Assembly (NCBI GenBank): GCA_041395945.1 | Contig: JAWKZN010000001.1 | Location: 2,684,403-2,748,402 of the forward strand | Direction of reading: 5' to 3' | DNA length: 64,000 nt | Source: Pseudomonadales bacterium | GTDB taxonomy: Bacteria > Pseudomonadota > Gammaproteobacteria > Pseudomonadales > Azotimanducaceae | In this document: in pieces, positions 3,666 to 28,735 of the stretch | How positions within the stretch are numbered: the first letter of the stretch is position 1 | How the letters are laid out: the number at the start of each line of letters is the position of its first letter | Translations under genes and position numbers: made by a program | Notes under the pieces: generated by a model | Databases searched by the model: none | Told to the model about the DNA's origin: nothing | Seen by the model: only the letters and a program-made list of their open reading frames with translations

Positions 3666-6600
3666 CTAAGGTTGCGGGCGTCCGCCGACGAAATCGAGGA
3701 AGCGCGCCAGATCGCCCTGGTCGACCTTCACGCGCAGTTTCATGAAAGGACCTTTGGCCGTGTACTCGGCGGCCGCGAAATCCGAGTCGTCGAAACCAAC
3801 AAAGTTGTAGCCGATGCTCATCCAGGTGTTTTCGAGGAAGCTGCGGCCGACAGAGAGGCCCGCCGAGTAGCGCATCACCTTCGATTCCAGCGAGTGCAGC
3901 GCGGCCACCTGCGCGCCCCAGTCCCAGCGGGGATTGAAATCGCGGCGGTACTCAGCGCCGTAGAGGGCGGTGACCGAGTCGTAGTTGTCGTCGTCGATGG
4001 TTTCGACGAGGTACTTCACACCGAGTTGCAGGCTCAACTGGCCACCACCGGCCGGTTTGTAATTCAGGTTGGTGTTGTTCACCATTTTGCGCGAGCGGGT
4101 ATCGAAGGCGTTGCTGCGCAGTTCGTCGAATGCCAGATCGAGACGGTTGAGCAGGGTCCAGGGGGATTCGAAAGGCCGCAGCGCCAGTCCCCAGCGGATA
4201 TCGGTGCGGTTGTGCAGGGAGCCGTCTTCCCGTTCCTCGAACAGCGCGGCGAGGCTGCCCGAAGTCACCCTGCCGTCGGCCAGGCGGCGCGACACACCGG
4301 CCAGCAGATTCCACTTGTCTGCCTGATCGCCCTGATGAAACTCGATCCGGGAGGAAGCGTTCCAGCCTTCCTGGCGATAACCCACCCCGGTGAAGAAGGC
4401 GGTGAAATCATCGTTGATGCTGCCTGAAGCGGGTGGCAGGGTGGGATTCGCGAGCAGCTCGTCCGCATCGTCCGCCTGCGGAGCCCGCTGCAGTGTCTGC
4501 ACCCGGTCGGTACCCACATCCAGCGACCAGCGATCGCCCAGCTTCCACTGCTGCAGCAGGCCGGTGGTGGCAAACAGCCGCTCGCCGTTTTCGGTCATCT
4601 GCCGCTGCAGCGACGAGCTGATGTCGGCACCGTTCCAGGGCCGCGCCTTGACGCCGAAACGGGTGTCCTGGGTGTCCCGGAAGTTGCCGAAGGTGAATTC
4701 CTGCTCGCCGCTCAGGGTGACCTTGTCGCTGAGCAGATAGTCCGCTCCCAGCACCAGACGATCCGGATAGTCGGTGTTGTCCGTCTTATCGATCGCCACC
4801 TCGGCATCACTGCGCAGCCGCAGACGATCGTCGAGCAGACCCTGCATGACCCCGAAAGTCACCTGATTGGCATCCAGATCCTCACCTGTGGCAACCGTTT
4901 CCCGCACCGCCCGCAGGCCGCCGGTGAATCGGGTATCGCCCATCCGGTACTCGGCCGCACTGTCCAGCACCGTCCGGCTGCCGTCGTTGACCAGATCATC
5001 CTGCTGGAAGGCCTCGGCACGCATCAGCAGATCCTCGGTCAGCCGATACTCACCCTCGACCCCGTAGCGGCGGGTACCGCGCTCGACGGTGGACTGCTGA
5101 CCGAATCCGAAGGCCGCATCCTGCTCCCGGACATAGGCGCGACCGGCCAGATCACCGGCGCGCTGCGCCACCTCCAGCAGATAGGCGTCGCCGCTGCCGA
5201 GCAGATCCGTGTCCGAACGGGCAACCTCAGCGCGCAGGGTGGTTCCGGTCTGGAACTCCCACTGCAGATCCGCGCCGACCAGATTGCCACCCTGCCCCTG
5301 GGTCTGGTCATCGATATAGGTCATCGCAATCCGGGATTCCCGATCGTCCAGACGCCAGGCCACACGGCCGCCCGCAACGAGCTGACTGCCGCCACCGGAG
5401 CGCACCTCGTATTCGACCTGAATGAAGGTGTTGTCGAGGTTCTCATCCTGGCTCATCACCGGCTGCTTGAATATGACGGTGCCGGCATCGTAATCGATGG
5501 TGTAGTCGAGATAACGGCTCAGGCTGACCTCACTGGTGATCTGCTCGGGATGAAAACGATCCCGGGTTACGATCCGGATCCGTTCGCTGTTCACCACCAG
5601 ACTGCGCTGGCTCAGGCGATAGACACCCGAGGTGCCATCCCCCGGGATTTCATCGAACACGAAGGCAAACCCGGTATCGCTGGCAAAGCCGTTCGCTTCG
5701 ATCTTCCCGCCATAATAGCTGGCCTGAGCACCGGTGAGTGTGCGGGTGTATTTGGTCAGTTCAGCAGCATCGAAGCCGGTATCGAAATCACCGAATAACG
5801 CCGCGAAGGCATCCCGCTCAACTTTCAGATAGAGCTTTTCCCCACTCTCGGCATCGTAGCGCTGCTGCGCGCCATCTCCGTAGAGTGTGTAGAACCTGTT
5901 GGGATCGATCTGCTGACGCAGCTGCTGATCGGTCTCCTTGTCCGTGTCATAGGCGGCGGTGAGCAGCCACTGGCCCCTGACCACGCCCTTGGCATAGAAG
6001 GCCATGCGACCTTCGCTGAAAGTGTCGTCTTCGATACCGGCGGCATCGAGACCCTGCAGATTACCCGAGACATCGTTGTAGCCCACCGTGCCTTCCGCGA
6101 GACCGATAAGAATCCAGTCCCGGGCGCCCGGCTTCAGACGGGCGCGGATCAGGTCCCGCCGCACGGCATCGAACTCGAAGCCGAGCTGCACTTCGCCGGT
6201 CACCGTCGTCGGCTCGAGTTCCACATAGGCGATGCCATCTTCCCGCACCAGGTAGCGGTCGATACTCTGCTGCTGGGTGGCAGCGGCGGCATCGAACTGC
6301 CGTTCCGGATTGCGGATCTGATAGGGTGGTGCAACCGAAAATTCACCGGTCAGGCCGGGCCGTGCCGGCTGGCCGGTGCGGTCGAACAGGCGCACGGCGA
6401 TCACGGGGGCCGTGATTCCGTCCGCAACGAGCTGAGAACGTTCCGCAAGAAACTCGGCCCGTACCGGTGCGGTTCCGAAACGTACACTGGTGCGCATCTG
6501 CACATCATCCGGAGTCTGTGCCGTCTGCTGTTCCGCGGACGCTGCCTGGAGCGGCTCGAGTCGTACCTCAATCTGATTGTCGCCTTCGAGAATCGATACG

Positions 6601-9600
6601 TTGTCCCAGCGCGACAGCGCCACTCCACGGGCGCGGTCCACAGTGGTGCCACTGAAGTTCAGCGGATTCACCAGCTCCCCGTTCACCAGCACATGGGCCC
6701 GATACCCGGCTTCATGCTTGGCGGCGACGGTGATCACCGGCATCCGCGGGTTGTAACCGGGCAGTGGCCAGACCAGCTGGTTGCCGACGGTCTGCGCAGA
6801 CAGCCAGTTGCGGTCGAAGGCGGGTGCGCGGCCATCGCTCACCTCGGGAATCCGATACGCGGAACGTTCGGCGACCGGCGGGGCAGAGACCTTCACACCG
6901 ACAGGCTCACTGCGCGCCATCAACTCTCCCTTGCTGGGCTCGTAGACCTTCGCCCGCACCGCTTCCGCTCCACCTTCCAGCACTTCACCGTTGGGCTCGG
7001 CGAGGGAATCCGGCCAGTTCAGCGCGAGCTCGGTGATCAGCACCGGCGTTTTCTGCTTTCCATCTGCCGGTGTTTCGAACATCAGCATGGCCTTTGTCGA
7101 CAGGGATTCCACACCGGCATCTACCCTGGTCTCGAAGACCAGATTGTTTTCGAATGCCGCCGTGCGCTCACCCAGCCGTATGGTGAGGGCACCACTGTCT
7201 GCACCGGAAGGGTCAGCCAGGGATGCGCCGTCGAGTGCGAGCGAACCCGGAACGTAGCGCGCGCCCGTGGGCAGCATCACCACTGCGGTGAGTGCCTGCA
7301 CCGGCACACTGCCACCCGCCACCACCAGCCGATGCATCACGGTTTCAGCCTCCAGTCTCGCAAACAGCTGGGCGCGAAGCAGACTCTCAGCAGGGGCTTT
7401 GGGCCGGGTATGGAAATCAGCTCGCCACATGCTCCCCGCCGCGACATCCACGAACTGGGAACGCACGCTGCCGGCAAAGCGCGTGTTCTGCTCACAGGCG
7501 ATGAGTTCATGGGTCTCCGGCAGGCTGGCTTCATCGACCTGCACCACGTGAGTACCTGGTGTGACACCCTCGATGTGGTACTTGCCCTCGGCGTCGGTGA
7601 CCACATAGGTCCCGTCTTCAAGCCACACCCGGACACCGGCCAGCCCCTGTCGATCCGCACCGGCATCACAGGCGCCGTCGTAAATCTGACCGATCAGAAT
7701 GGCCTTGCTCTGCAGCAGATCCTCGCGCACGGTCACATCGGCAAAGGCGGTGTTGGAACTGCCGATCGCCATGCCGGTTGCACTCGCCGAGTTGCGGGCG
7801 CGACCGAGCTTCGCACCGATGGTGACCTCCACCACATACTTCACCGCCGCGCTGGCGTTGTCGAAAGCGACATCGGTGAAGCGGAGCGTGCGTCCGTCTC
7901 CGGAAATCTGTGGATCCGCGGCAGCCGCACCGTTGATCTGCGCCGATCCCGCCACGTAACGGAAACCATAAGGCAGTTCATCCACTACGCTGAACGTACT
8001 CTGCACCACCGCTTCAGGATCCTGCACCAGCACCTGGTACTGCAGCAGGTCGCCAATCCCAACCACATCACGGCTCGCCTGCTTGCTGACAAACACATCC
8101 ACCGTCAGCGGGTCCAGCGGCAGATCGAACTCGAAACTCTGCCCCGCCGCGACCGTGAACGCATCCCCGCGGGAACCCGCGGCGAGCTGATAAGGACCGC
8201 CTGGCAGTGCGTCAAGTTCGGCGTCTTCCCGGACAGAGGGGAAGCGATACTCGATGGGCGCACTCACCTCGAACCGATAGTTACCCGGCAACAGATACGG
8301 GAAGTAGAAACTTCCGGGTGCGAAGGTGATCGATACGCCCGCAGCATCCGTGGCAGTGCCGCCGCTGGTGACAGTGGTCGGGAAAGGGGTCACGCCGTCC
8401 GCAGCGAAAGTCCGACCCTGGGCCGGCAGACCGGTTACCGCATCCAGCAGCGTGACCTGCACCCCATCCACCGGGGCACCGTTACTGCTGGAGAAGGTGG
8501 TGAAGCCCGGATCCAGCAGTGCGGTAAACGCGATGGCATCGCTGCCATCGTCCGGATCGGTATAGCCGATCACCGCACTGCTGCCTGCGGCTGTATTGAG
8601 ACTGCAGTCCGAGCTTGCACCGGCAACCCTGGACGTCTGCAGATAACCGGAAAATATCCCGGAACTCGCCGCGGTCTCCTGCAGGCGCACACGCTCACGA
8701 TCGCCGTCGGCGGCAGTCACCACGACCTCGATCCAGTCGGGCGCAAAGGGATCCAGATCCTGATCAGGGTCGTTCACCCGCAGAAATATCGTGTCGCCCC
8801 GATTGAAGCGTCCCGCCTCGAGCAGCGGCTGCGTACCCGGGACAGTGATGGCCGTGCCGAGTCGATCCACCGGCATGGGTGCTGGTGTGAACGCGCTGCC
8901 GTCGAAACACTGGGTAGGGGAGACGTAAAGCGATGATGCCCCTGTGGTACCCGGTGCAAGGGTCAGCACTTCGAGCGCCGCCGGAGTCGGCACCAGCGGC
9001 GCCAGGTCGAGGGGAACGTCCACACCGAACGCGGGACCCGTGACCGTGAATACAGCCCCGCGGGAACCGGGACTCAGGCGATAGGGTGCGCCAGGCAACG
9101 CCTGCAGTGCGCTGTCCGGGAGTGTTGACGGGAACCGGAACCGGTTCGGTGGCGTGACCAGCAGCCGATAGGCCCCTGCAGCCACCGCGGGAAAGCGGTA
9201 GGTGCCGGCCGGAAAGCCGTACTGATTGCCCAGGGCGTCGATCGCCGTCTCGCCTGAGAAGACGGCTGCAGGAAAAGCAACACCGGCTGTTTCCCCGGTA
9301 ACGCTGGCTGGAGCGCCGCTGGTGCTGTCCAGCAGTTCGAGGCGGGTTGAATCAACCGCCTGCCCGGTGGTGGCGAGAAACACCCGGCTCAAGGGATTGA
9401 TGACACCCGCGGTGCTCGCGAGATCGCCGGGATTGAAGGCATCGACATAGGAAACGGTGAAAGAGACATTCACCGCAGCACCAAGGGCGCAGTCACCGGC
9501 GACAGAAGCCCCCGGACCCGTCTGCAGATACCCGACAAAACGTGCGCTGCCCGGGCCGGTTTCCGCAAGCCGCAGCAACTCACTGTCACCGTCACTGGTC

Positions 9601-10706
9601 AGAACCTGAACTTCAACGGTATCGATCAGCCCGCTGTCGAGATCCGCATCCTGATCCATGACATCGATGAATATGGGGTCACCGCTCTTGAAGAGACTGC
9701 CGGTGCGCAGGTCGATGCTGCCGGGTACTGTCAGCGTAGTACCTGTGAAAGTCACCGGTATCGGCAGGTCGCTGTAGCCTGCTCCGGCATCACATTGCGC
9801 TGTACCCACAGTCACAGAACCCGCACCAGCACCGGGAGCGGAGGCCTGCAGAAGAACGAGAGTCGCATCACCCGGCGCACCACCCCCGGGGGGTGTCGCG
9901 GTCAGCGTGAAGGTCTGCATAAATGTCAGGCCACCGCTGTCCGTGGCGGTGACAGTTACGGTGACACTGGTACCCAGCGGCAGGCTTTCTGTATCGAGAA
10001 GTTTGAGCATGCTGCCGACGATTTCGAATCGTGAATCGTCCACCCCGAAGCTGTGGCTGTCGCCGCTGTCCGGATCGCTTACCACCAGAGTACCCACTGG
10101 TGCACCCGGAGTGCTGGCGTCAAACCCCGTACTCGAAAGGGTTAGCGCCGTGGGCGCTTCGTTCAGGTCGTTGACCGTGATGGACAGATTGACCAGGCGC
10201 GACGCACCTGCGGAATCTGTGACAAGCACAGCAACAGTGGTCAGTGGCGTGGCTTCGAAATCCAGCGTAAATCCGGTCGCGAGCCGGAGTTCGTTGCCAA
10301 CGATCTCGAAATTCGGATCGCTGGTGGAGAATGTGTGGCTGTCAGCCGGGTCGAGATCGAAGGCACTGAGCAGGCCAATGGCACCTGCGGTGTTTTCATC
10401 GATGTCTGCCGGATCGACCGCCGCGCCGTAGGGGGCGCTGTTGCCGGCGGCGGGATCAGTGATGAGGGTGCTGCCGGCACTGACCGAGTAGTCTGTGCCG
10501 CCCACCTGATAGCTGGCCGTGGCAAGGTTGGTGAAAGGTGTGTTGGGCGGAATCGCCCAGCTTTCGCCAGAAATCACCGCCCACGCGAGCAGGCCGGCGC
10601 AGAGCAGCCTTTCGGCCACACTGCGCAGACCCAGTAACGCAGATGGCGGACGCTGCTTGCGCTGCGTCCGCCCTCCGCGTTCCGCTCTCGTGTTCGGAAC
10701 TGGCAT
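3666..10706 (-). CDS. giant (2,346 aa) secreted multidomain protein P4: signal peptide, two cadherin-like repeats, two ~280-aa duplicated modules, DUF11-type and CarboxypepD_reg/SdrD-B-like Ig folds, a Big_1-like domain and a C-terminal ~800-aa beta-barrel-like region
   Basis: 7,041-nt ORF. Features seen: signal-like N-terminus ([18 protein letters not shown]); cadherin signatures ([20 protein letters not shown]); DUF11 signature ([35 protein letters not shown]); CarboxypepD_reg-like segment ([32 protein letters not shown]); Big_1-like segment ([26 protein letters not shown]). The last ~800 aa have alternating-hydrophobic strand patterns rich in Y/G/D/R ([39 protein letters not shown]). Confidence 0.85.
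   Translation of the reverse strand: [2346 protein letters not shown]
8106..9821 (-). repeat. tandem internal duplication (2 x ~280 codons) inside the giant gene
   Basis: Protein segments aa ~296-572 and ~592-867 align along their whole length: QC.(A/D)G..., TVPG, GD.IF, D.D.DLD, ETG/ETA..S..F.GYLQT, DC.L, G.YR, RFPS, ALPG.PY.L..GSRG..FTV. Confidence 0.7.
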
Positions 10707-10728
10707 CAGTATTTCAGGATTCGATCAA

Positions 10729-12081
10729 TCAGTTGACCGTTTCCACCGTCACGAAGTAGGCAATGAAGCCATCTTCTCCTGCTGCGCAGTCACCAAAGGC
10801 GACGTCCACTTCCAGCTGGGGGAAGTTGGCGTCTGCGCCGTTCTGGGTACCCGCGGTATAGGGCAGGTCGGTACCGAAGCCCGCGCAGTTCTCGCGGTGT
10901 ACCAGATCGAGATCAGTTACGCCCGTAAGCGAGAATGTGGCGTTCACGACTGGAATTCCGGTGTCGAGGTCGAAAGTCACCGAGGCGGGCACGTTCACTG
11001 CTGCTGCACCCGTATTCCCTTCGTCGACAGGCTCGGTGAGCAGAAGGCCCACATCCGGGATGTCGTCGGTGATCTGCAGGGACTGGGCTGTGAAGGTGGT
11101 GTCGTTGTTACGCACACCGACCACATAGAGGATCACGGCACCGGGGATCGCCTTGGGTTCCACACCCGCATTCAAAGCACCTGCGCCGTCGTAGCGGTTG
11201 CCGCTGATCGGGTCATAGATGACCTCGGCAAATTTTGCGACCAGTATGTTCACACCCTGGACTACGAAGCCCGAGCTGTCCGAATTCTGACCGTTGCTGG
11301 CCACATCAGCGCCTGCCACAACGGCGAAGGCGAAGAAGTTGTAGCGCAGGTCTTCACTGTTGGCAGATGAGCCATCACGGAACACGGTTTCCACCGCAGC
11401 GGTGTTCGGGTTGTTGGTCCCGGCCTGGCCGGGCGAAGCATTACCGCTGTCGTCCGCGGCAATCGCAGCACCCCCCGTGGCAACCGCTGCAACCAGGGTA
11501 TAGGTCGCATAGTCGTCCGCGGCAGCAGTGCCCGGGACCTCGACGACAAGCACCAGTTCGATGGTGTCGTCTTCGATGACCGCGGGCAGGCTGTAGATAC
11601 CGTTGCCGTCCGGGACCAGCACCGTGTCGACACCGTCGTCGTAGAGCTGGTTGGCGTTGGCATCAATCGCCAGAGTCAGGGTCACCTCATCGAAGAAGGT
11701 TCCGCCCACCGGCGAAAAGGTGTTCACCTGGGTGGCATTCTGATCGACGATGGCCAGGACGATATCCGACGCCGCGTTGGAGGTGTTGGTCACTGTGTAG
11801 TTCGCAGCTGGCACTCCCGAGAGAGTGGCGTACTGCTGACCTGCGGTGACGGTTACCCAGTTCGCATCGGTCGCGGTGACGTCCACCGCAAGAGCACGGT
11901 CCACCTGGAAACTGACAGCGTCGATCAACTGCGGCTGGGCGCCACCGTTGACGCTGTAGTTCAGCGTGACCGAATTGGTTACCGTAGTGCCTGCATCGGT
12001 ACCGATAGCCAGCACCGGCATCGCGCCGGATATGGCCAGAGCGGCGAGGGCCGTTCTGCAGGTGCGTTTGAAGTACTGCAT
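10729..12081 (-). CDS. secreted DUF11-type repeat protein P3 (450 aa)
   Basis: ATG 12081 preceded by an AAGGAA RBS. Signal peptide MQYFKRTCRTALAALAISGAMPVLA. T/V/N/D/G-rich beta-type composition. DUF11-like segment GAVILYVVGVRNNDTTFTAQSLQITDDIPD. Its stop lies 22 nt before the giant gene start. Confidence 0.8.
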   Translation of the reverse strand: MQYFKRTCRTALAALAISGAMPVLAIGTDAGTTVTNSVTLNYSVNGGAQPQLIDAVSFQVDRALAVDVTATDANWVTVTAGQQYATLSGVPAANYTVTNTSNAASDIVLAIVDQNATQVNTFSPVGGTFFDEVTLTLAIDANANQLYDDGVDTVLVPDGNGIYSLPAVIEDDTIELVLVVEVPGTAAADDYATYTLVAAVATGGAAIAADDSGNASPGQAGTNNPNTAAVETVFRDGSSANSEDLRYNFFAFAVVAGADVASNGQNSDSSGFVVQGVNILVAKFAEVIYDPISGNRYDGAGALNAGVEPKAIPGAVILYVVGVRNNDTTFTAQSLQITDDIPDVGLLLTEPVDEGNTGAAAVNVPASVTFDLDTGIPVVNATFSLTGVTDLDLVHRENCAGFGTDLPYTAGTQNGADANFPQLEVDVAFGDCAAGEDGFIAYFVTVETVN

Positions 12082-12120
12082 TGCTAGTTCCTTTTCTTCA
12101 GTGCGTTAGTTACGAGAGAG

Positions 12121-12627
12121 TCACTTGAGTCGAACATTGAAGGTGACGAACCCTTCTTCCGACGGAGCAAGCTCCGGCAGAAACGTCCAGCGGATGGCCT
12201 GGTAGTCCTTCGCAGAGGCGACGACTTCCTCACCATTCAGCAGAACCGTCAGCGCTTCGGGCACATCGAAATGCACGCCGTCCACCGAGAAGAGAATCTC
12301 GGTGCCGGCGCCGAAAGCGCTCCCTTCCAGATACTCCGTGTCGGCAGGTACCGGATTGGTGATCACGACGCTCCCCGCATCGATCGCTTCCGTGCCCCGG
12401 TTGCGGAAGCGGATCGAATAGCGCAGCTCGTCTCCCGGCACGACGCGGTCCGCGTCGACCAGGCGCCGCTCTACCGCGCCCGCTTCGTTAACAAAGGCTT
12501 CCACCTTCTTCACAGAGTTTTCGAGCTTCACTTCCGCCGCTGCCGAAACAGCAAGGAGGAGGCTCAAGGTGGCAACCATGGAGCAGGCCAGTTTCCGCGC
12601 CGTGTTGCGTGTCTGTGCTTGCGTCAT
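12121..12627 (-). CDS. small secreted single-domain DUF11 (TIGR01451 conserved repeat) protein P2 (168 aa)
   Basis: Internal ATG 12627 of ORF 12121..12837 has a strong RBS (AGGAGAA) and starts a signal peptide ([31 protein letters not shown]). Canonical DUF11 motif [39 protein letters not shown]. Confidence 0.8.
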
Positions 12628-12667
12628 CTCTTTTCTCCTGTGTGTGTTGTCCGGCTGACGCCGGTTC

Positions 12668-13774
12668 TCATCTAATGGCGGCATCAAAGGTGATGCTGAT
12701 CGCAGGCGAACCCCCGGTGATAACACCGAGGGTCGCCTGGATCGTCTGGGTCCCGGCATTGAAGCCGGTGTTATCCGTTCCGGCAGGTGCGAAGTCGTCG
12801 TCCGCATCCTCGCCGGGCGGCAGCGCCGACACCGCAAGGGTGCCGGGCTGGTATTCGAGTTCGACCGGAATAGCGTCGGTAATGACCAGGCTCTCGGCGT
12901 CGCCTGTGCCGGTCACACTCACATCGATCTGATAGGTGATCACCGAGCCCGGCACGAGGGTGGTACCGCCAAATGGATCCACGATCAGAACGGCGGTTTT
13001 GGTGATGTTCACGACCGCCGCGCTGACCTGGTATCGCCCTTCCGCGCGGATCAGCAGATTGGCGGTATCGTGGCTCGTGCCGACCACAGCGGTGACGTTG
13101 CCACCACCAGACTCTCTGGGATCTCCGCCGCCAGCATAGCTGGTGCCTGCAGGCGGGAAGGCAGGGTTGGCGGGATCATCCGTGCCGGCGTTGCTGTAGA
13201 GGGTCAGACTCACTGCCCGCAGCTGTACGGCGCCCTGTTCGTTGGCCGGATGGGCGCCGATGCTGCTTTCCACGTAGACGATCAGCGAGGCATCCTCGGC
13301 GAGCAGCGGATCGTTCGCGCCCGCGACATAAGCGGTGTCATCGCCGATCTGCAGGCCGGCTATCGAGTTACTTTCGAGGTAGATCTGGACCAGTGCGGGA
13401 TCGAAGTCGTCACCGCCTACCCCATTGTCGGCGATCAGCCGGAATGTTTCGGATCCGTTACCGTTGTTGGTCAGCGTGAACTGCAGAATGGCACTCGCCT
13501 GACCGGCACTGACGCCGACCGGCCCCGCATCGTTGCTGACCACCACCGCGTTGAGCAGTTCGTCCACGAAAGTCTGACTGGGAAGGCTGATCACCGGGGT
13601 CTGGGGCACGCCGCCGATCTCGAAGCTCGCCTGGGCAGAATTGAGGATTTCGCGCCCGGCATCGGTACCCAATGCCTGCGAATTGGCACTCACTCCCAGT
13701 GTGAGTAACAGCGCGAACGCCAGATAAGTGACGCGTGCGACGCGATTGCGTCGCGAGCAATGGCTCGATTTCAT
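12668..13774 (-). CDS. secreted DUF11-type protein P1 (368 aa), first gene of the operon
   Basis: Internal ATG 13774 of ORF 12668..14044 starts a signal peptide ([34 protein letters not shown]). C-terminal DUF11 motif [36 protein letters not shown]. The upstream in-frame extension looks non-coding (Cys/Trp/Arg-rich). Confidence 0.75.
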
Positions 13775-14010
13775 GGCAGTACCTGGCCTCGTTGTCTGGT
13801 CAATCCTCAACCAAAACAGATGTTTACCTGTTGCGAAGGGCCAATCCGTGATCTGCGTCATATCTGCCGGAAATTTGGCACGAAGGCGCACCGGTGCTGA
13901 ACCGGCAGCGCAACTGGCGGGGGATTGGCTGTAAATCTTCACAAGGGCGGCAATTCGGTGACACATCACCCCGCAAAAGGGGCAAGGGTCGTGCCAAAGG
14001 AGGGCGGTGC

Positions 14011-14070
14011 CGGAAATCCGTCGCTGCCGGGGCGTCCAGGCCACAGGGCGCGTGGCCCGACGGATTTCCG
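14011..14070. other. nested perfect inverted repeat (compound hairpin) between yheU and the P1 operon
   Basis: Outer arms CGGAAATCCGTCG (14011-14023) / CGACGGATTTCCG (14058-14070). Inner arms GGCCAC / GTGGCC (14039-14057). A further 7-bp hairpin GCGTCAG-AATG-CTGACGC lies at 14089-14106. No U-tract follows any of them. Confidence 0.4.
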
Positions 14071-14160
14071 CGGCGGCCAGTCAGGGTGGCGTCAGAATGC
14101 TGACGCTAACGCTGCAGGTCCGAATGTGGCATGGAGGGGATTGACGGGTGACGAAATCTG

Positions 14161-14385
14161 TCAGGTTTCGCGACGGTTTTTTGACACCGGCCGGATGTCG
14201 ACGCTGTCGGTTTCCGGATCAAAGTCGATCTCCGCCTCGCCGCGGCGCAGCTGACGTCGCACCTGCTCGCATTTGCGCTCGAGGTCATGTTCCGAAGGCC
14301 CGTACTCGGTGCCTTCGCGCAGCACAAAAGACTCGATGATCCCGGCCAGCGCTGCCTCGGTGAGCGTCTCCAGAGGAATTTTCAT
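14161..14385 (-). CDS. yheU: YheU family protein (UPF0270)
   Basis: Internal ATG 14385 gives MKIPLETLTEAALAGIIESFVLREGTEYG..., which matches the YheU signature IESFVLREGT(D/E)YG as recalled from E. coli YheU. Confidence 0.85.
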   Translation of the reverse strand: MKIPLETLTEAALAGIIESFVLREGTEYGPSEHDLERKCEQVRRQLRRGEAEIDFDPETDSVDIRPVSKNRRET

Positions 14386-14576
14386 GCCACTCCCGACCGG
14401 CAGAGGATTTACACCACCCCGATCATCGCCCGGTGGCTCAGGATGGCTGAAGGACGACCAGACCACCGCCAAACAGTGACGCAGGCCGCATACCTGTACT
14501 GAAGCTTTCGATTCTATCTTGAATTTGCCTGGCCAAGGTGCGTTACTTATCGAGCTGAATCAGTAGTTTAGTGACG

Positions 14577-14682: not shown

Positions 14683-15390
14683 ATGGCCGAACAGGATCAC
14701 ATACTCGTCGTCGAAGACGAACCCATCACCCGTAAACAGCTCGTCTCCTATCTGGAGGACGAAGGCTTCAAAGTCACCTCCACCGCATCAGGGGATGATG
14801 TGCTGAAGCTGTTGACCGAGAAGGACATCATTCTGGTCCTGCTCGACATCAAGCTCCCCGGTAAGGATGGTCTCACGCTCACCCGCGAGATTCGCGCCCA
14901 GTCGGACATGGGCATCATTCTTGTGACAAGCAAGCAGGAACAGATCGATCGGATTCTCGGACTCGAAAGCGGCGCAGACGACTATGTGACCAAGCCCTTC
15001 GATCCCCGCGAACTGCTCAGCCGTGCCCGCAATCTCATCCGCCGGGTCCACATCCAGCAGAAGCAGCGCCGCAAGAACCACATCCGAAATTTCGAAGGCT
15101 GGCAGCTCGACCTCAACAAGCGTGAGCTGACCGCCCCGGACGGCACCAAGGCCACTCTGTCGGCCGGCGAATACCAGCTGCTGCTGGCCTTTATGGAAAA
15201 AGCCGGTGAAGTCATGAACCGCGATCAGCTCATGAACCGCATCCGCAACCGGGAATGGTTTCCGGACGATCGCTACATCGATGTGCTGGTCGGTCAGCTG
15301 CGCAAGAAGCTGGGTGAGCGCGCGGCCAACGCCAAGATCATCGCGACGATCCATGGCACGGGATACCTGTTCACACCGGAAGTGGTCTGA
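14683..15390 (+). CDS. OmpR/PhoB-family response regulator (ArcA/TorR-like)
   Basis: Receiver motifs (ILVVEDEP, LVLLDIKLPGKDG, GADDYVTKPFDPRELLSRARNLIRR) plus a winged-helix C-terminus (IATIHGTGYLF). Confidence 0.95.
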   Translation: MAEQDHILVVEDEPITRKQLVSYLEDEGFKVTSTASGDDVLKLLTEKDIILVLLDIKLPGKDGLTLTREIRAQSDMGIILVTSKQEQIDRILGLESGADDYVTKPFDPRELLSRARNLIRRVHIQQKQRRKNHIRNFEGWQLDLNKRELTAPDGTKATLSAGEYQLLLAFMEKAGEVMNRDQLMNRIRNREWFPDDRYIDVLVGQLRKKLGERAANAKIIATIHGTGYLFTPEVV

Positions 15391-15537: not shown

Positions 15538-18500
15538 GTGGTAGACAGGAAAATCTACGAAAGCGCGTCGACCCTGGTGAAGCGGACGACGTGGCACGAT
15601 CAGGCCGTTGTCACCAAGACTCTCAAGGCCAGCGCGCAGACACCCAACGCGATCACGCGCTATCACCACGAGTTCAACATCAATCAGTCGCTCACCAGTC
15701 CCTATGTATGTCGGGCGCTGGCGATGGACGACCGCAACACACGAATCATCTATGAAGATGACGGTGCGGAGTCGCTGCGGACCCTGATCCAGACCGGCAC
15801 ACTCACCTTCGACGAGCGTCTCGACATCGCCGCAGACATCACCCGCGCCCTGCAGTCGATTCACGATGAAGGCGTGATTCACCGCGATCTGAATCCGGGC
15901 AACATCATCGTCAACGAAGAAACTTTCAGTGTGCGGCTGATCGATTTCGGACTGGCTACCCTCATACCCAGGGAGTACCCGCAGACCGATCACATCCACC
16001 AGCTCACCGGCACCCTCCCCTACGTGTCCCCGGAACAGACCGGCCGGGTTAATCGGGTAGTCGACTACCGGACCGACCTCTACTCCCTCGGTGCAACCCT
16101 TTACGAACTCTTCGCCGGTGCGCCGCCCTTTCCCAACACGGACCCGCTGGAGCTGATACACGCCCATATCGCCAGCACACCACGCCCGCTGAACGCGGTG
16201 GTCGATACGGTACCCCGCTGGCTGTCCGAAGTCGTGCAGAAGCTGCTCGCCAAGCAGCCCGAAGATCGCTATCAATCCGCCGCCGCGGTGCACGACGACC
16301 TGACAGAAGGCCAGAATCACAGCAACATCATTCCGTTCCGCCTCGGTCAGACCGATACCCCCGGACAGCTGACGTTACCCAAACGACTCTACGGGCGTGT
16401 TACAGAAACCACCAAGGTCACCGATCACCTGCGCCGGATCGCCCAGGGTGAAGTGCTCATTCTGGAAATTACCGGCAATGCGGGGGTCGGCAAGGGCGCC
16501 CTGTGCAGCACAATCGGCCGGTCCGCACACGAGAACCGGATGCTCCTGGCCCGGATATCTGCGCCAGGAGTCGAGCTTCGTGACACCGACTCTCTCTGGC
16601 TGGAGCTGCTGCGTCAGCTCGTGCGCCAGGCCCTCTCGCTGGGAGAATCTCCCGCTGAGGCGCTTATCGAACGCCTGTCTCATCTCGAATCCGCAGACGT
16701 CCGCGCGCTCACCCCTTTCATTCCGGAGCTGAAAAATCTGCTTCCCGCTCCGGATGAGTCCAGCGCCGGACTCCCGGCCCGGGGTATCCGCGCGCTGCTG
16801 AGCGCTATCGTCCCGCAGCCGGTCTGTGTGGTGGTGGAGGAAACGGATCAGGTACCCCTGGAATGTCTCAGTGATCTGATCGATGCAGCTCTGTATTCCC
16901 GAAATCTGCTGCTGGTGATTACCCGGGAGCGTCCCCATCCAAGGCTCTTCTCCGAGCCACGGATCGCCGCAAAAACTACTCACCTGCCTCTGGCCCCGTT
17001 TGACAAATCCGATGTGCGCGCGCTGCTCGCTGACATGCTGTCCCAGAGCGAGGCGCGGGTAAGGGAACTTGCCGGTGAGATTCACACGAAGACCGATGGG
17101 CTGCCCCGGGACGTGCTTGCGCTTGTCGAAGAACTGCACCAGACACAGTCCATCGTGCATGACGCCAACGCGGGCAGCTGGTCCTGGGATCTGGATAGAA
17201 TCCGCGGCCACTTCTTCAGCAACAACACGTCAGCCCGCATCACCCATCAGCTCAATCAGCTTCCCGGAGAAACGCTGCATGCACTGGGGCTCGGTGCCGC
17301 TATCGGGGAACAGTTCACCGCACGCCTGATCGCGGATCTGGCGGACCATGATCAGTCCGCCACCGCTGCCATTCTGCGACCCGCCATGAATCAGGGGCTG
17401 CTGGTCACCCAGTCAATGGGTGGGACTGCCACCCAGCTCCAGTATCAGTTCGCCCATCCGCGGATCCGTGCCTCCATCTACGGCGGGCTCACAGAGTCCG
17501 AAAAGGTTGCGAATCATCAAAGGGTCGCCACCAAGCTCAAACAGGGCGGCAGACCCAGCGGCGCCAAACTGCTGCAGATCGCCGATCATCTGAACGCCGC
17601 CACCCACCCCACCGAGCCGGACGAAGCGCGCCGCACGGAAGTCGCCCACTGCAATCTGCTCGCCGCACGGGAGACCCTGCGGCAGGGCGCCTTTCAGCAG
17701 GCCTACAAGTACTGTCGCATCGGCCTGCTGCTGCTGCACCGGCATCCGGGCACCGAGCCCATGAAGCTCGAGCTGGCACAGTGCGCGGCAGAATCGGCAT
17801 TCTTCTGCGGTGATTTCGAACAGCTCGATCGTGTCCTTGCCGCCGTCCCCGATCATCACAGCGCGCTCGAGGAAATCAGGGTCCGGGCAGCCATTGCCCA
17901 GAACGACCTGACCGGTGCGCGGGGCCTGGCACTCGCCGCACTGGGCAGCCTGAACTATCCCGTGCGTGGACCGGGTCTGGCGGGTTTTCTGCCTGACTGG
18001 CTGCGCGTGCCACAGCGCGCCTTGCGGACACCGGTACGGACTCTGGAGGATGTACGGCTGCACCAGAGCTTCCGTTTTGTCTGCTACCTGCTGCATGCCG
18101 GCTACCACCTCGGTCTGCCCGCCCTCGACCGGGTGATCTCGGACCTGCTGCGCCTGTGCGCCCGCAAGGGCTACTGCGCAGAGGCCGCCTTCGCCCTCGC
18201 CGCCACCGCCATCAACGATGTCGCCAACGGTCGCATCCGCGCCGCACGCCGGCATGCTCTGGAAGCCCGGGCGCTGATCGGACAGTTTCCAGGCGAAAGT
18301 GCTTCCATCCGCGCCAGTACCCTGCTCGCCGGTCTCCTCGACCCCTGGTTCGGCACCCTCGATCAGACACTGCCGGTGCTTTCTGACAATCTGAACAGCA
18401 GTCTGGCCCGCCACGACGTGGAGTTCGCGGCCAGTGCCAGCGCGCTTTACGCGGCCAATGGTCTGCTGCGGGGACTTGAACTCGGCTCATTGAAACGGGA

Positions 18501-21500
18501 ACTGATCCGGCAGATTGCGGACATCGGTCAGTTCCGTCATATCACCGGAATAAACATCACCAATTTCGTGCTGCAGATCGTAGTGTCTCTCCTCGGCCGC
18601 AGTGAGTCGGACAGCGGCGCAGATCACAATGAACTGCGGATTTCCAACCCCCGGGATCGGGTGGCTCACGGTTACGTGTACGTGCTGCGCCTGTATTTCG
18701 CCGTGCTGTTCAACGACTTCAAAGGGGCAGGCGCCATTCTGGAGCTGGCTCGCGAACATGTTGCCGCACTCACCGGTTCGCCGCTGCTGGCGACTTTCAG
18801 ACTCGCCGAAGGCCTGATCGAACTGCGCCGCGGGACGGTTGCCGGTCGTTACACGGCGACACGCAATCTGTGGGAAATGCGGGGCTGGGAAAAACTCGGT
18901 GCGCTGCACGCACGACCGAAGCGGCTCATCCTGCAGGCGGAGCTCGCGCGCCGCGGCGGTGCGACAACCCGCAGTCTCGAATATTTCGAGCAGGCGGCCG
19001 ATCGCGCCCGTATGAATGGTCAGGCCAATGATGAAGCGCTCGCCTATGAACTGGCCGCCCGTGCCTGCGACAGCAGTGGCCGCAGTGACTTCGCCAAGCT
19101 GTTTGCGCGCAACGCCTATCAGGCCTATCTGCGCTGGGGGGCTACCGCAAAAGCCAATCAGCTCGAACGGGAATTCCACGGGCTGCTTTCTGAAAATCAT
19201 CCGGTTTCCCGGGGAGCCAGTCTATCGGTCGGCGATCTCGCAGATCTTACTGTGCGGGATTTCCAGACTCACAGCACGACCTTCGAAAGTACCGAACTCA
19301 ACGAGCGCATCGTGGACACCACCACGGTACTGCGTGCCGCCCAGACCATCTCCGGCGAGATACTGCTGGATAAGGTACTGACAAAGCTGCTGCGGCTGAC
19401 ACTCGAGCATGCGGGTGCCCAGAAGGCGTGCATGCTGCTGGCGCACGACCGTCGTCTCTACCTGGAAGCCATAGCCTCGGTGGACGCCGGCCCGACCCGC
19501 AGAGTCAGCCCGGCGGTACCGCTGGAGGCGACGGGTGAAGTGCCGGAAAGCATTGTGCAGTTCGTCGCCCGCACCAAGGAAGCGCTGGTACTTACCGACG
19601 CAACACAGGAAGACGTGTTCACCCAGGATCCCTACGTACGACGCCTGCAGCCTCTGAGCGTGATGTGCCTGCCGATCATCCACCGCGGAGACATCACCGG
19701 CATCCTCTACGTGGAGCATCGCTGGCTCACCGGGGTGTTCACCTCCCAGCGGGTTGAAGTACTGGCTCTGCTGTCTTCCCAGGCCGCAATCTCGATCGAG
19801 AACGCGCGCCTTTATGCTGACCTGCAGGCCACCCAGGACGAGTATCGCGCGCTTTACGACAATGCCATCGAAGGCCTGTTCCGGATCAGCCCGGAGGGCT
19901 ATCTGGTGAATGCCAACCCGACACTGGCCCGCATTCTCGGTTTCGACTCGGTGGAGCAGCTGCTCGACGAGTACCGGGACCTCATCGATCGGGTGTTCCT
20001 CAACAACGAACAGGCCGGTCTCTTCATCTCCCAGCTGGAGGAGCACCGCCTGGTCAGCGGCTTTGAAGCACAGGGTGTGACCCGGGACGGTCGCGTCTTC
20101 TGGGTGGCACTCACCGCACGTCTCAGCAGCGATACGGAACGCGGGGATTTCATCGACGGCAGCCTCATCGACATTTCCGAGCGTATCGATCGGGAACGCT
20201 CAGACAAACAGCGACAGATCGCCGAGGCGGCCACACGGGCAAAGAGCGAGTTTCTCGCCAACATGAGTCATGAGATCCGCACGCCGATGAACGCCATCGT
20301 CGGTTTCTCCCGGCTGGCGCTGGAGACTTCCCTCGATCGCAAGCAGCACGAGTACGTGACATCGATCCGCAACGCGTCGGAAAACCTGCTGACGCTGGTC
20401 AGCGACGTGCTGGACTTTTCGAAGATCGAAGCGGGCAAGCTGACCCTGGAAGCCCGACCCTTCAAACTCTCCGAAACCCTCGCGGAGGTAGAAAGGCTGT
20501 TCCGCACCGAAGCCCGCAGACGCAATCTGGTCCTGGAAATCGATGATCGCACCCAGACAGACCCTGCAATCCCCGCAGACGGCATGCTGCTCGGCGATGC
20601 TCTGCGTCTGCAGCAGGTTCTGGTCAACCTGGTAGGCAACGCCATGAAGTTCACGGAAGTCGGCCGTATCGAACTGGCTGCGGAAGTCAGTAACGCGCGG
20701 GCGGGAGATGATCAGATCGAACTGCGCATATCGGTGACCGATACCGGAATCGGTATCGATCCGGAGCACCAGAAACGTCTTTTCGAGTCTTTCGAACAGG
20801 CAGAAACCTCCACAACGCGGCGCTATGGCGGTACCGGGCTCGGCCTCGCCATCTCCAAGCGCATCGTCGAACTCATGGGTGGCAGGGTCTCGGTGACTTC
20901 CGAAGTGGGTAACGGCAGCTGCTTCGAATTCACCCTGTTGACCCGTCTGCCCTCGGATGCCGTCGCCACAGCAGCGCGGGGATCGAAGCGTCGACCCAGC
21001 GATATGGTGCTGCACGACCGCCGCATCCTGGTTGCGGAAGACAACCCGATCAATCAGCAGCTGGCGCTTGAATTCCTCCAGCGTCGCGGGGCGTCGGTGC
21101 AGATCGCCGAAAATGGCAGGCAGGCTGTGAACCGGGCAACCGAGTCGGAGTTCGACGCCATTCTCATGGACATCCACATGCCGGAACTCGATGGCCTCGA
21201 AGCCGCCACTCAGCTGCGACTGCTCGGACTGACCCTGCCCATCATCGCGGTATCAGCCGACGCCCTTTCCAGCAGCAAGCTCGCGGCAACCGAGGCTGGC
21301 TGTGACGCTTATCTCACCAAGCCGATCGATTTCGATGAACTCGTCCACACCCTGGGTGAGCTGCTGCCGAGTCTGGACAGCAGCCAGCCCCGTCGACGCG
21401 CCAGCGATCAGCCGGTGGTGGCGGTGGATGCCGATGCGGAATCCATGATGGAAGAAGCGCTGCGCTCCTTCCCCCAGCAGCGCCTGCCCGGCATCGATAT

Positions 21501-21858
21501 CGGCGACGCCATTCGCGGCCACAACGGCAACGTGAAACTGATGGTCCGGCTCATGGGAGAGTTCGGCCAGTACTATGGCGACGCCGCAGCAAAGATGCGC
21601 GGCTACGCCACCGCCGAGCAGTATGAGGCAGCGGAACGGCTGGCGCACAACCTGGCGGGTGTCGCGGGCAGTTTCGGGGCAAGCCGGTTGCAGGAAGCTT
21701 CGAAGGCACTGGAGCTCGCCCTTGTCGCCAACGACTCCCGCAATCTGCTCGGGCTCGTACGCAGCTTCGAAGTCGCGCTGACCGAAGTGCTCGAATCGAC
21801 CGAAGCCCTGGCGAGCAACGAGATTCCGCTCAGAGCGAGCGACTTTTCGGAGGGGTGA
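15538..21858 (+). CDS. 2,106-aa hybrid sensor: Ser/Thr-kinase-like domain, AAA/STAND-like NTPase with helical repeats, GAF, PAS, HisKA, HATPase_c, REC and Hpt
   Basis: GTG start. Kinase-like motifs [15 protein letters not shown]-loop GNAGVGKG. H-box [12 protein letters not shown]2 box [18 protein letters not shown]. Receiver [11 protein letters not shown]...[12 protein letters not shown]. Hpt motif [11 protein letters not shown]. Confidence 0.9.
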
Positions 21859-22881: not shown

Positions 22882-23102
22882 GAGAACTCAGCCAGGAAGT
22901 TCGGAAAAATTCAGCGGGCGTGGTCGAGGACCTGCTACCCCGGGCCGTGTAGCGCGGCCGAGTAAGGCTATTTGACTCGCGGGCCTCCCGTGAGGCAAAT
23001 AGCTGCACGAGGGCACAGCGGAGCTGCCGAGCGAGGCCCGGGGTAGCAGGTCCTCGACCACGCAATGATCAAACTATTTTCGAGATGCCTGGCTGAGTTC
23101 TC
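22882..23102. repeat. ~220-bp palindromic (REP/MITE-like) intergenic element, copy 1
   Basis: Perfect 29-bp inverted repeat GCGTGGTCGAGGACCTGCTACCCCGGGCC (22918-22946) / reverse complement at 23035-23063. Outer 15-bp inverted repeat GAGAACTCAGCCAGG (22882-22896) / 23088-23102. The 97-nt core 22976-23072 recurs at 42324-42420. Confidence 0.75.
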
Positions 23103-23184
23103 CAGCGGCAGTCGGGGAGATGGCGCTGCCGTGTTTCGTATCCATCGAGAAGCTGGGGTGGATACGAGGCTCTGCAGAACGCCC

Positions 23185-25452: not shown

Positions 25453-25568
25453 CGTCTATTAAACGTAGTTGAGCCATGGCGAATCGCAAACCGATTATGC
25501 GCCGTAATCTGTGGCGTCAGTATCCCGTCACCGGCAGGTGCGGCCGCCGGCGGATATTCGTGACGCCG

Positions 25569-28067: not shown

Positions 28068-28735
28068 TGCACCAGGCGTCCCGCTTCAATCTCGATCACC
28101 CGCTCGCAACGGGTAGCCAGCCGGTCATCGTGGGTGACCAGGACAAGCGTGGTCCCGAACTCCGCATTGAGCCCGAACAGCAGGTCGATGATCTTCTGAC
28201 CTGTCGCCGTGTCCAGATTGCCGGTGGGTTCATCCGCGAAAAGTACGTTCGGCTGGGAGGCAAAGGCCCGGGCAATCGCGACCCGCTGCTGCTCTCCGCC
28301 GGATAACTGCCTGGGGTAGTGGCCGGTGCGCTCAGCGAGACCGACTTTCTCGAGCAGTGCCCGGGCCTGGGGCTCAGCGCGCCCGTCCCCTTTCAGCTCC
28401 GCTGGCAGCATCACGTTTTCCAGTGCAGTCAGGCTGCCGAGCAGCTGAAAGGTCTGAAACACGAAGCCGACCTGCTCGCCTCTAATTCTCGCCCGCTCCT
28501 CTTCATCCAGCGATGTCAGTTCGACGCCGCAGAGTTGTACTTTACCGGCACTCGGGACATCGAGACCGGCGAGAATGCCGAGCAGCGTGGTTTTTCCGGA
28601 ACCGGAAGCACCGACGATGGCGACGGACTCCCCTGCGTTGATTTCCAGATCGATGGCATCCAAGATGCACAGCTCGGATTCTGCAGTAGGCACGGTCTTC
28701 GTGACGCCTTCGGTTTTGATAACCAGACGATTCAT
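28064..28735 (-). CDS. ybbA: ABC transporter ATP-binding protein YbbA
   Basis: Walker [10 protein letters not shown], signature [14 protein letters not shown], Walker [13 protein letters not shown]. Collinear with E. coli YbbA as recalled. Confidence 0.95.

Follow-up and report, generated by a model that had tools for sequence, protein, structure and literature searches.

A four-gene operon in a Pseudomonadales genome

We examined 64,000 nt of the genome of a Pseudomonadales bacterium (GCA_041395945.1, contig JAWKZN010000001.1, positions 2,684,403 to 2,748,402), referred to below as the window, in which four consecutive genes on the minus strand encode predicted secreted proteins. In the order of transcription, open reading frame (ORF) calls place P1 at 12668–13774 (368 aa from MKSSHCS), P2 at 12121–12627 (168 aa from MTQAQ), P3 at 10729–12081 (450 aa) and P4 at 3666–10706 (2346 aa). 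P1 and P3 are paralogous pilin-like subunits; P2 is a small protein of the CLIPPER family that has an acceptor domain only; and P4 combines a stalk with what is predicted to be a giant C-terminal β-barrel. We propose that these genes specify a conserved fibre or adhesin system, anchored in the outer membrane by a barrel of a new family, and we would give this reading a probability of about 0.55.

Most of what the initial annotation had said of the operon was recovered when the sequence was reanalysed. The coordinates and the spacers of 40, 39 and 22 nt were re-derived, and the ribosome-binding sites AGGAGAA and AAGGAA were found ahead of P2 and P3, respectively; no obvious Shine-Dalgarno sequence lies upstream of P4. 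All four products begin like signal peptides, with a basic segment followed by a hydrophobic one and an AxA-type site, as judged by eye. The same annotation assigned the DUF11 signature to all four proteins, and here the outcome was mixed. TIGR01451 scores of 28.8, 38.0 and 24.3 bits for P1, P2 and P4 (curated cut-off 24) place these three in the CLIPPER/DUF11 family, whereas P3 matches no hidden Markov model (HMM) in the Pfam or NCBIfam libraries and can be linked to the family by remote similarity only. Because the same ORFs at many other loci match both P1 and P3, we take P3 to be a diverged paralogue of P1, whose K...PGA..Y...ITD motifs it retains.

The P1 sequence recurs with 100% identity in a Pseudomonadales metagenome-assembled genome, as a 'hypothetical protein'. 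More generally, every part of the operon has orthologues, the best of them at E = 0, and dozens of genomes keep the gene order. Given this homology and conserved synteny, the four ORFs are real genes, and the possibility that they arose by chance in GC-rich DNA (62% GC) could be discarded. A scan of the operon for sigma-70-like promoters found none, and terminator-like sites occurred at background level. Long ORFs also run antisense to P4 (window 3666–10706), the largest being 747 aa, e.g. 6693–8936 on the plus strand; they lack homology support and are to be expected in DNA of 62% GC.

The C terminus of P4 is predicted to form a giant outer-membrane barrel

The initial annotation read the end of P4 as a very large barrel, and structure prediction points the same way. 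An AlphaFold2 (AF2) model of residues 1503–2346, built from an alignment of 55 relatives, has a mean predicted local distance difference test (pLDDT) score of 78.1 and a predicted TM-score (pTM) of 0.70. It contains about 40 consecutive strands of membrane length over the last ~815 residues, with the predicted outer-membrane barrel itself spanning aa 1532–2326 (3729–6113, minus strand). The DSSP string of the model runs through 8 long strands, a β domain of ~70 residues, 31 more long strands and then 1. The inserted domain (aa 1689–1758; 5433–5642, minus strand) thus sits between predicted strands 8 and 9, and many of the invariant columns of the family fall in it and in the loop before it (GDGTSG.Y.LS...NSE...RDRF...LDY.IDY..GT..FK.PV); we regard it as a candidate plug. 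We infer from the model that the strands close into a single giant plugged barrel. For comparison, SprA has 36 strands, Deinococcus SlpA 30, and LptD and MtrB 26 each; to our knowledge, the predicted count of ~40 exceeds that of any single-chain outer-membrane barrel. After the last predicted strand (...WMSIGYNFVGF) comes a tail of ~40 conserved residues (D.DF..A.YTA.GP...R.KFDQ; P4 aa ~2303–2346; 3666–3800, minus strand), and hence the aromatic C-terminal residue usual in outer-membrane proteins is internal in P4.

The barrel resembles no known secretion family, in line with the suspicion voiced when the operon was first noticed. Models for ushers, autotransporters, intimin/invasin, LptD and Omp85 all failed to match it. 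The Usher family (PF00577) gave no match for P4 at E ≤ 0.1, nor for 23 members of the barrel family at E ≤ 1; Pfam searches with the barrel returned neither autotransporter PF03797 nor intimin/invasin PF11924, and the LptD and Omp85 (BamA/TamA) families were absent from the Pfam output. No relative was found in Pfam, NCBIfam or among PDB sequences, whether a single sequence or a 23-sequence profile was used, and the 23 members gave weak, generic barrel matches only (DUF2490, OMP_b-brl and one glycoside-hydrolase β-sandwich, E 0.047). Foldseek against the PDB likewise retrieved generic large barrels only (SlpA, LptD, SprA, MtrB and FimD/PapC), with TM-scores of about 0.13–0.23. The best of these was SlpA, at about 0.2; TMq values were 0.13–0.16 for FimD/PapC, 0.17–0.20 for SprA and 0.13–0.21 for LptD.

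Two further identities were considered and rejected. A TonB-dependent or SusC-like transporter, an idea raised by the CarboxypepD_reg domain of P4, would be expected to match plug or TonB-box families, and no such match was seen. A substrate of type IX secretion (T9SS) would be in the wrong phylum, as Pseudomonadales do not belong to a phylum known for T9SS, and there is no homology to SprA.

An apparently split CLIPPER domain in the proteins of the operon

The feature of the operon that we find most informative is absent from the initial annotation: a CLIPPER domain that appears split, with an N-terminal hairpin carried by P1, P3 and P4 and the remaining acceptor part carried by P1, P2 and P3. 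CLIPPER is the name now given in Pfam to DUF11, a CnaA-like sandwich of nine strands with an intramolecular isopeptide bond (PMC12617251). In the structure PDB 9IFR, this bond joins Lys715 to Asn806, with Asp748 as the presumed catalyst (PMC12617251). The strand numbers that we use for the isopeptide residues were assigned from the description of that structure.

P1 consists of a signal peptide, a hairpin, a β-sandwich domain (D1) and a C-terminal CLIPPER domain that ends after strand 7. The last of these, the acceptor domain (12671–13048, minus strand), comprises strands 1–7 and includes K225 and D266. P3 is laid out in the same way, with a hairpin, D1 and a truncated CLIPPER domain; its motifs aK...PKaIPGA..Y...i.D are conserved, and its C terminus reads ...GFIAYFVTVETVN. 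In P1, P2 and P3 alike, the chain stops right after the strand that precedes CLIPPER strands 8–9. The same abrupt ending, ..I.F.V.I[N/D/K], recurs in all cassette types examined, both in pilin-like and in P2-like proteins; measured against a complete-domain HMM of 140 positions, acceptor chains break off near position 100 where the alignment reaches far enough. An AF2 model of mature P1 (pLDDT 92.6) agrees, showing a C-terminal domain with strands 1–7 only.

A segment resembling the absent strands 8–9 lies at the other end of the chain. Residues 1–36 of mature P1 (...VDE; 13565–13672, minus strand) form a hairpin that includes a candidate isopeptide Asn, N11. The same motif follows the signal peptide of P4, at aa 51–85 (IPPNTPFTNLATASYQVGG...ITD; 10452–10556, minus strand). 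Across phyla, the mature N-termini of P1, P3, P4 and their orthologues share the pattern G-T-x-A-G-T-x-I-x-N-x-A-x-x-x-Y/F, after which a second strand follows. Of 60 stalk proteins, at least 48 carry the motif behind the signal peptide according to a crude detector, whose own failures explain most of the misses. Profile comparison is suggestive only: hhalign places the hairpin on columns 112–136 of the 140-column complete CLIPPER profile (P = 0.069), and HMM matches of hairpins to the predicted last two strands have i-E-values of 0.016–8. P2 lacks an N-terminal hairpin, and no P2-like protein with the motif was seen in the 19 cassettes examined. Conversely, P4 has no detectable truncated acceptor domain for its own hairpin; both of its CLIPPER-like domains look complete.

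The residues needed for an isopeptide bond are present in P1 and P3 and conserved. K225 and D266 each occur in 53/53 relatives of P1, and across pilin-like proteins of all cassette types the Lys and the Asp are each found in 190/192. Position 11 of the hairpin is Asn in 44/53 sequences, a set not selected on the motif, and Ser in 8/53. That the bond actually forms in P1 and P3 is nonetheless the most speculative element of what we propose. A direct alignment with 9IFR was sought with phmmer, but the C-terminal domain of P1 gave no meaningful match in the PDB. Foldseek of P1 against the PDB retrieved generic tandem Ig domains, with TM-scores of 0.2–0.3 and no family assignment.

The stalk of P4

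From its N terminus, P4 comprises the signal peptide, the hairpin, a variable stalk, a conserved CLIPPER/SdrD_B module, β-sandwich domains and the barrel. The variable distal stalk (8097–10439, minus strand) contains two cadherin-like modules (aa ~90–270) and two repeat modules of ~300 aa (aa 270–870); the region aa 1–270 was found in 16/84 loci only. The conserved proximal stalk (7017–8120, minus strand) contains a CLIPPER domain (aa 863–1000), an SdrD_B/CarboxypepD_reg segment (aa 1010–1059) and a CLIPPER-like domain (aa 1136–1230). Adhesin-type modules had been attributed to P4 at the outset; SdrD_B and CarboxypepD_reg score above cut-off at aa 1010–1059, whereas the cadherin assignment is sub-threshold (E 0.065).

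The internal CLIPPER domain scores 159.9 bits with a custom HMM. Its triad, K875, D909 and N972, is spaced like Lys715/Asp748/Asn806 of 9IFR, as counted from the translation (PMC12617251), and the domain closes with two strands (...GRARNSASATG...SSNTAFADVTV). Two β-sandwich domains precede the barrel (6132–6719, minus strand), the second being Big_1/Invasin_D3-like. The E-value for Invasin_D3 is 0.024 in P4 and 7e-6 in the distant relative L003, and both Big_1 and Invasin_D3 are also recorded on other relatives of P4.

The cassette is widespread and its conservation is graded

To define the barrel family, we ran hmmsearch against 1.84 billion representative sequences. This yielded 4,828 representatives (50% identity) when matches down to E ≤ 1e-3 were counted, 2,516 of which also pass E ≤ 1e-30; most have a length of ~1,800–2,400 aa, with the barrel at the C terminus. 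In databases these proteins are named 'hypothetical', 'OmpA family' or 'DUF11 domain-containing' only. A scan of species-representative genomes for related loci, based on a 23-sequence barrel alignment, identified at least 586 genomic relatives of the barrel.

Conservation of the cassette outside this genome, on which the initial proposal depended, is clear. In most of the 84 loci with enough flanking sequence, the order P1-P2-P3-P4 is present upstream of the barrel, and it extends across Pseudomonadota, Desulfobacterota, Nitrospirota, Verrucomicrobiota and others, at least six phyla. Hosts include Pseudomonadales, Porticoccaceae, Woeseiaceae, Arenimonas, Methylophilus medardicus, Parasphingorhabdus halotolerans, Geomonas and Geomobilimonas, as well as Desulfobacterales, Zetaproteobacteria, Nitrospirota, Verrucomicrobiota, Lentisphaeria and Krumholzibacteriota. 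The conserved order runs from one or more pilin-like genes to a P2-like gene and then to the stalk-barrel gene. Stalk and barrel are separate genes in five loci (L001, L002, L020, L056, L069). Loci of the Geobacter/Geomonas type (L026, L033, L040, L042, L044, L049, L052, L076) carry two to four pilin-like genes that have no BLAST link to P1 or P3 and show the same hairpin motif and the same abrupt C terminus; P2 is still detectable by BLAST in these loci.

A distant barrel subfamily, represented by L003 and L004, is 26–34% identical. At L003, a three-gene module (positions 6600–14529 of that locus) encodes a stalk protein with CLIPPER, SdrD_B and DUF7933 domains, which starts QTQITNTASISA; a barrel protein of 1,127 aa with its own signal peptide and an Invasin_D3-like N-terminal domain; and an OmpA lipoprotein.

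Conservation differs markedly between the parts of the cassette. Median bits per residue fall from 0.77 for the barrel and 0.62 for the proximal stalk to 0.49 for P2, 0.36 for P1, 0.29 for the distal stalk (aa 270–870) and 0.16 for P3. P2 is the most widely detected small component (55/84 loci) and P3 the most variable component. This gradient fits a system whose distal end is exposed and variable.

A proposed mechanism of assembly

We suggest that P4 would be exported by Sec and that its C-terminal ~815 residues would fold as an outer-membrane barrel, acting as membrane anchor and, most likely, conduit. The N-terminal portion of P4, which is variable, would reach out from the cell as a stalk, with the conserved proximal modules in or under the barrel. 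P1 and P3 would serve as pilin-like subunits, each with strands 1–7 and the Lys/Asp pair at the C-terminal end and strands 8–9 and the Asn in the N-terminal hairpin; P2 would supply strands 1–7 only, and the N terminus of P4 a hairpin only. The hairpin of one protein would then complete the truncated domain of another, in a form of donor-strand complementation in which the donor has two strands, and a spontaneous Lys-Asn isopeptide would lock the P1/P3 joints. The resulting chain could be written P2 ← (P1/P3)n ← P4, with P2 as distal cap and P4 as membrane-anchored base.

The numbers of donors and acceptors bear on this scheme. In the cassettes examined, n pilins accompany one acceptor-only P2 and one donor-only stalk, giving n+1 donors and n+1 acceptors. 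With the two numbers equal, P2 acceptor-only and the stalk donor-only, at least one pair must form in trans. We also infer, as the initial annotation did, that P1–P3 are secreted subunits and P4 their pore, with passage through the barrel leading to exposure at the surface. Whether P1 and P3 themselves are completed in trans rather than in cis, and so polymerize, is a separate matter, and here we judge the trans arrangement less likely than not. The most specific version of the proposal, that a plugged barrel of ~40 strands exports and anchors a CLIPPER-fold pilus locked by intermolecular Lys-Asn isopeptides, must be regarded as doubtful. Donor-strand complementation combined with isopeptide bonding is established in archaeal threads (PMC9715654) and has been proposed, with mutational support, for BsaA of Clostridium perfringens (10.1101/2024.11.04.621531); we found no literature report of such assembly in diderm bacteria or with the CLIPPER fold.

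The neighbourhood of the operon, as originally remarked, offers no partner of a known export route. Among neighbouring ORFs of at least 200 aa in the first ~49 kb of the window, searched against Pfam, there was no match to an usher, a PapD-type chaperone, TpsB, a type I secretion system (T1SS) or a sortase. Omp85, POTRA and two-partner secretion (TPS) domain families were absent from the Pfam output for P1–P4 and for these neighbours.

A number of points weigh against the fibre reading. The whole analysis is computational; the strand count of the barrel comes from the DSSP string and not from inspected coordinates, and the likeness of the hairpin to CLIPPER strands 8–9 is not significant when taken alone. 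Mean-field direct coupling analysis of 192 pilin-like sequences produced no usable contacts, being dominated by conserved-column and gap artefacts. The Lys/Asp pair is not conserved in P2, where the catalytic position is Asn in 37/55 and Asp in 17/55 sequences, so that any bond to P2 would be non-covalent. No energy source or chaperone for the operon is evident. In L003 and L004, the hairpin is present on the stalk protein with no P1–P3 genes nearby, which implies that the motif has another role or partner there and may be an export signal. Many relatives have a peptidoglycan-binding OmpA domain interposed between the stalk and the barrel, and either the chain re-crosses the membrane through the barrel lumen or the stalk is periplasmic; this is a constraint on the topology of P4 that the initial annotation lacked. 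Finally, AF2 places the hairpin confidently in the P1 monomer (pLDDT 78–92 for residues 1–30), which makes a nested domain completed in cis feasible, and a coil of ~50 residues between D1 and the CLIPPER domain could provide the return path.

Alternative explanations

This last point underlies the alternative that fares best. P4 would be a self-sufficient, autotransporter-like adhesin, and P1 and P3 would be monomeric accessory proteins of the surface or matrix, completed in cis and locked by an isopeptide; only P2 would dock in trans, on the hairpin at the tip of P4, where the two would form one complete CLIPPER domain, and no polymer would arise. The P1 monomer is modelled with high confidence throughout, the connector between D1 and the CLIPPER domain is well ordered, and P2, which only accepts, and P4, which only donates, would make up a 1:1 orphan pair. 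Closure of a nested domain by an isopeptide that links segments from its two termini is known from Gram-positive tip pilins. However, such confidence in a monomer may mislead, as AF2 also self-completes subunits that truly exchange strands, which the authors of the archaeal thread study report for Saci_0406 (PMC9715654). Completion in cis also leaves the tight and wide linkage of P1 and P3 to the barrel gene without a reason, and the one to four fast-varying pilin-like genes per cassette are what one would see for structural subunits of a fibre. On balance, we consider this alternative unlikely.

A second possibility is that the hairpin is mainly an export or targeting signal, to which a periplasmic domain belonging to the barrel protein would bind by β-augmentation, in the manner of the TpsB POTRA domains that take up a TPS domain. 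P2, which lacks the signal and has an open acceptor groove, would remain in the periplasm as a chaperone-like cap and keep hold of the hairpins up to their delivery. All proteins that one would expect to cross the membrane do carry the hairpin, among them stalks encoded by genes of their own (L001, L002, L020, L069), and it is found in the L003 subfamily too, which has only the stalk, the barrel and the OmpA lipoprotein. Moreover, P2 is the best-conserved small component and lacks isopeptide residues, as a part of the machinery would. TapA, described in one account as a strand-complementing chaperone for TasA (PMC10151520), would be a precedent for P2 in this role. What an export signal does not account for is the invariant Lys/Asp of P1 and P3, in a domain without the Asn strand, or the uniform stop of the small proteins at strand 7; nor was a hairpin-binding domain identified. 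As a replacement for the fibre reading, we judge it improbable; the two are compatible rather than exclusive.

The least probable of the alternatives makes the system an internal rivet of the envelope, in which the P4 stalk and P1–P3 are periplasmic and a porin-like barrel anchor ties the outer membrane to peptidoglycan, a role comparable to that of Deinococcus SlpA or the OmpA and Lpp tethers. Although a peptidoglycan-binding OmpA domain that separates stalk from barrel, or else a gene for an OmpA lipoprotein next door, occurs in many relatives, and SlpA is the top Foldseek match, the TM-scores to SlpA are only about 0.2, a β-sandwich stalk of ~1,500 residues looks, by estimate, far longer than the periplasm is wide, the distal parts are fast-varying and lineage-specific as exposed proteins are, and adhesin stalks outside the cell are where cadherin-like, SdrD_B and CLIPPER domains typically occur (PMC12617251), making such a rivet very improbable.

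Neighbouring genes

An OmpR-type response regulator (14683–15390, plus strand; Pfam) is encoded divergently from the operon. It is followed by a hybrid kinase of 2106 aa (15538–21858, plus strand), in which Pfam identifies Ser/Thr-kinase, AAA (AAA_16), GAF, PAS, HisKA/HATPase, REC and Hpt domains, the Ser/Thr kinase domain being of the eukaryote type. The pair adjoins the cassette in 10 of the closest relatives, within loci L005–L018, and in closest relatives only. We regard both proteins as candidate regulators of these genes.

Between the response regulator and P1, on the strand of the operon, lies an ORF of 73 aa (14163–14384, minus strand) that belongs to UPF0270 (YheU; E 1.8e-23) and is missing from the initial annotation. 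Downstream of the operon, on the opposite strand, are subunits of an Mrp/Nuo-type antiporter. Three consecutive plus-strand ORFs ~10 kb from the operon, at 23065–23820, 23839–25122 and 25476–28199 (251, 427 and 907 aa), gave no Pfam match at E ≤ 1e-3.

Implications

Searches of Pfam, NCBIfam, the PDB and full-text literature returned no description of the cassette, the barrel family or the logic of the split domain. The domains of the stalk are ordinary. Gram-negative bacteria are known to build surface fibres by a small and well-documented set of routes: chaperone-usher, curli, type IV and type V pili, autotransporters, TPS and T1SS adhesins. If confirmed, a conserved cassette that lies outside all of these would represent a new route.

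Several consequences would follow. Should the ~40 strands form one closed barrel, one would have to ask how such a structure is put together by the β-barrel assembly machinery (BAM), and whether it lets through domains that are already folded and cross-linked. A concrete way of building covalent fibres with neither sortase nor ATP is offered by the split CLIPPER domain, which could also be a natural source of orthogonal protein-ligation pairs. If the covalent version of the proposal is true, thousands of species would make Gram-negative pili that are covalent, sortase-free and chaperone-free, a natural counterpart of SpyTag/SpyCatcher. The hosts are environmental (relatives of Geomonas and Geobacter, methylotrophs, and marine and soil Gammaproteobacteria), and the fibres may matter in attachment to minerals, particles or partner cells.

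Comparison with known systems

The initial annotation could not assign this architecture to a described class of secretion system or pilus, and that judgement stands: the operon fails the defining tests of every class tested. It nevertheless has elements in common with several of them.

Chaperone-usher pili offer several parallels. In both, a cassette encodes a single large outer-membrane barrel together with several small subunits of the Ig-like kind, and a β domain is inserted between early barrel strands, like the usher plug. The subunit fold appears incomplete and is accompanied by an N-terminal segment that would complete it in cis or in trans. One type of subunit lacks a donor, as does a tip adhesin, and one component would serve as base or terminator. 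There are also differences. The barrel has ~40 predicted strands, compared to 24, with no sequence homology and no convincing structural homology to ushers, and it is fused to a stalk of ~1,500 aa. None of the neighbouring ORFs scanned matches a PapD-like chaperone, and P1–P3 match DUF11-type models only. The proposed donor is a two-strand hairpin that resembles the strands absent from the same domain, and the subunits are CnaA-like CLIPPER proteins with isopeptide residues.

Archaeal threads (Saci_0406) and BsaA share with P1 and P3, as proposed here, N-terminal strand donation and an inter-subunit isopeptide, and the half-interface cap Saci_0405 is encoded alongside the thread subunit in the way that P2 and P4 accompany P1 and P3 (PMC9715654). 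The folds differ, being type-1-pilin-like and TasA-like in those filaments as opposed to CLIPPER/CnaA-like here. Their hosts have no outer membrane or dedicated barrel, and the trans bond, in our case, is putative.

In type V systems (Va and Ve), passenger and barrel belong to one chain. The barrel of P4 is C-terminal, as in Va, and Big_1/Invasin_D3-like domains adjoin it, as in intimin and invasin (Ve). On the other hand, the barrel has ~40 predicted strands rather than 12 and matches neither PF03797 nor PF11924; pilin-like partner genes are conserved with it, and in some genomes stalk and barrel are separate genes. Two-partner secretion (Vb) differs in that no Omp85-family TpsB, POTRA or TPS domain was matched. 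Sortase-assembled pili are also unlike this system, as P1–P3 end after a β strand, without LPXTG or a hydrophobic tail, and no sortase was seen among the scanned ORFs.

With respect to domain content, a comparison can be made with the CLIPPER adhesin B9T28_05395 of Acinetobacter silvestris (9IFR), which belongs to the same domain family and has the same Lys-Asp-Asn triad (PMC12617251). It too has a stalk of tandem domains with cadherin-like modules, and OmpA-like anchoring domains are found in relatives (PMC12617251). Yet it is a single chain of complete CLIPPER repeats with intramolecular bonds, and neither a barrel nor split domains nor partner subunits are described in that work (PMC12617251).

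The giant barrels SprA, SlpA, LptD and MtrB resemble the predicted P4 barrel in being wide enough for folded protein and, in some cases, in having a plug or an inserted partner. The likeness does not extend to sequence, where there is no similarity, or to fold comparison (TM-scores of 0.13–0.23), and T9SS components, LptE, MtrA/C and an SLH domain are not present. In its way of working, the system comes closest to a combination of chaperone-usher pili, autotransporters and filaments joined by donor strands and isopeptide bonds.

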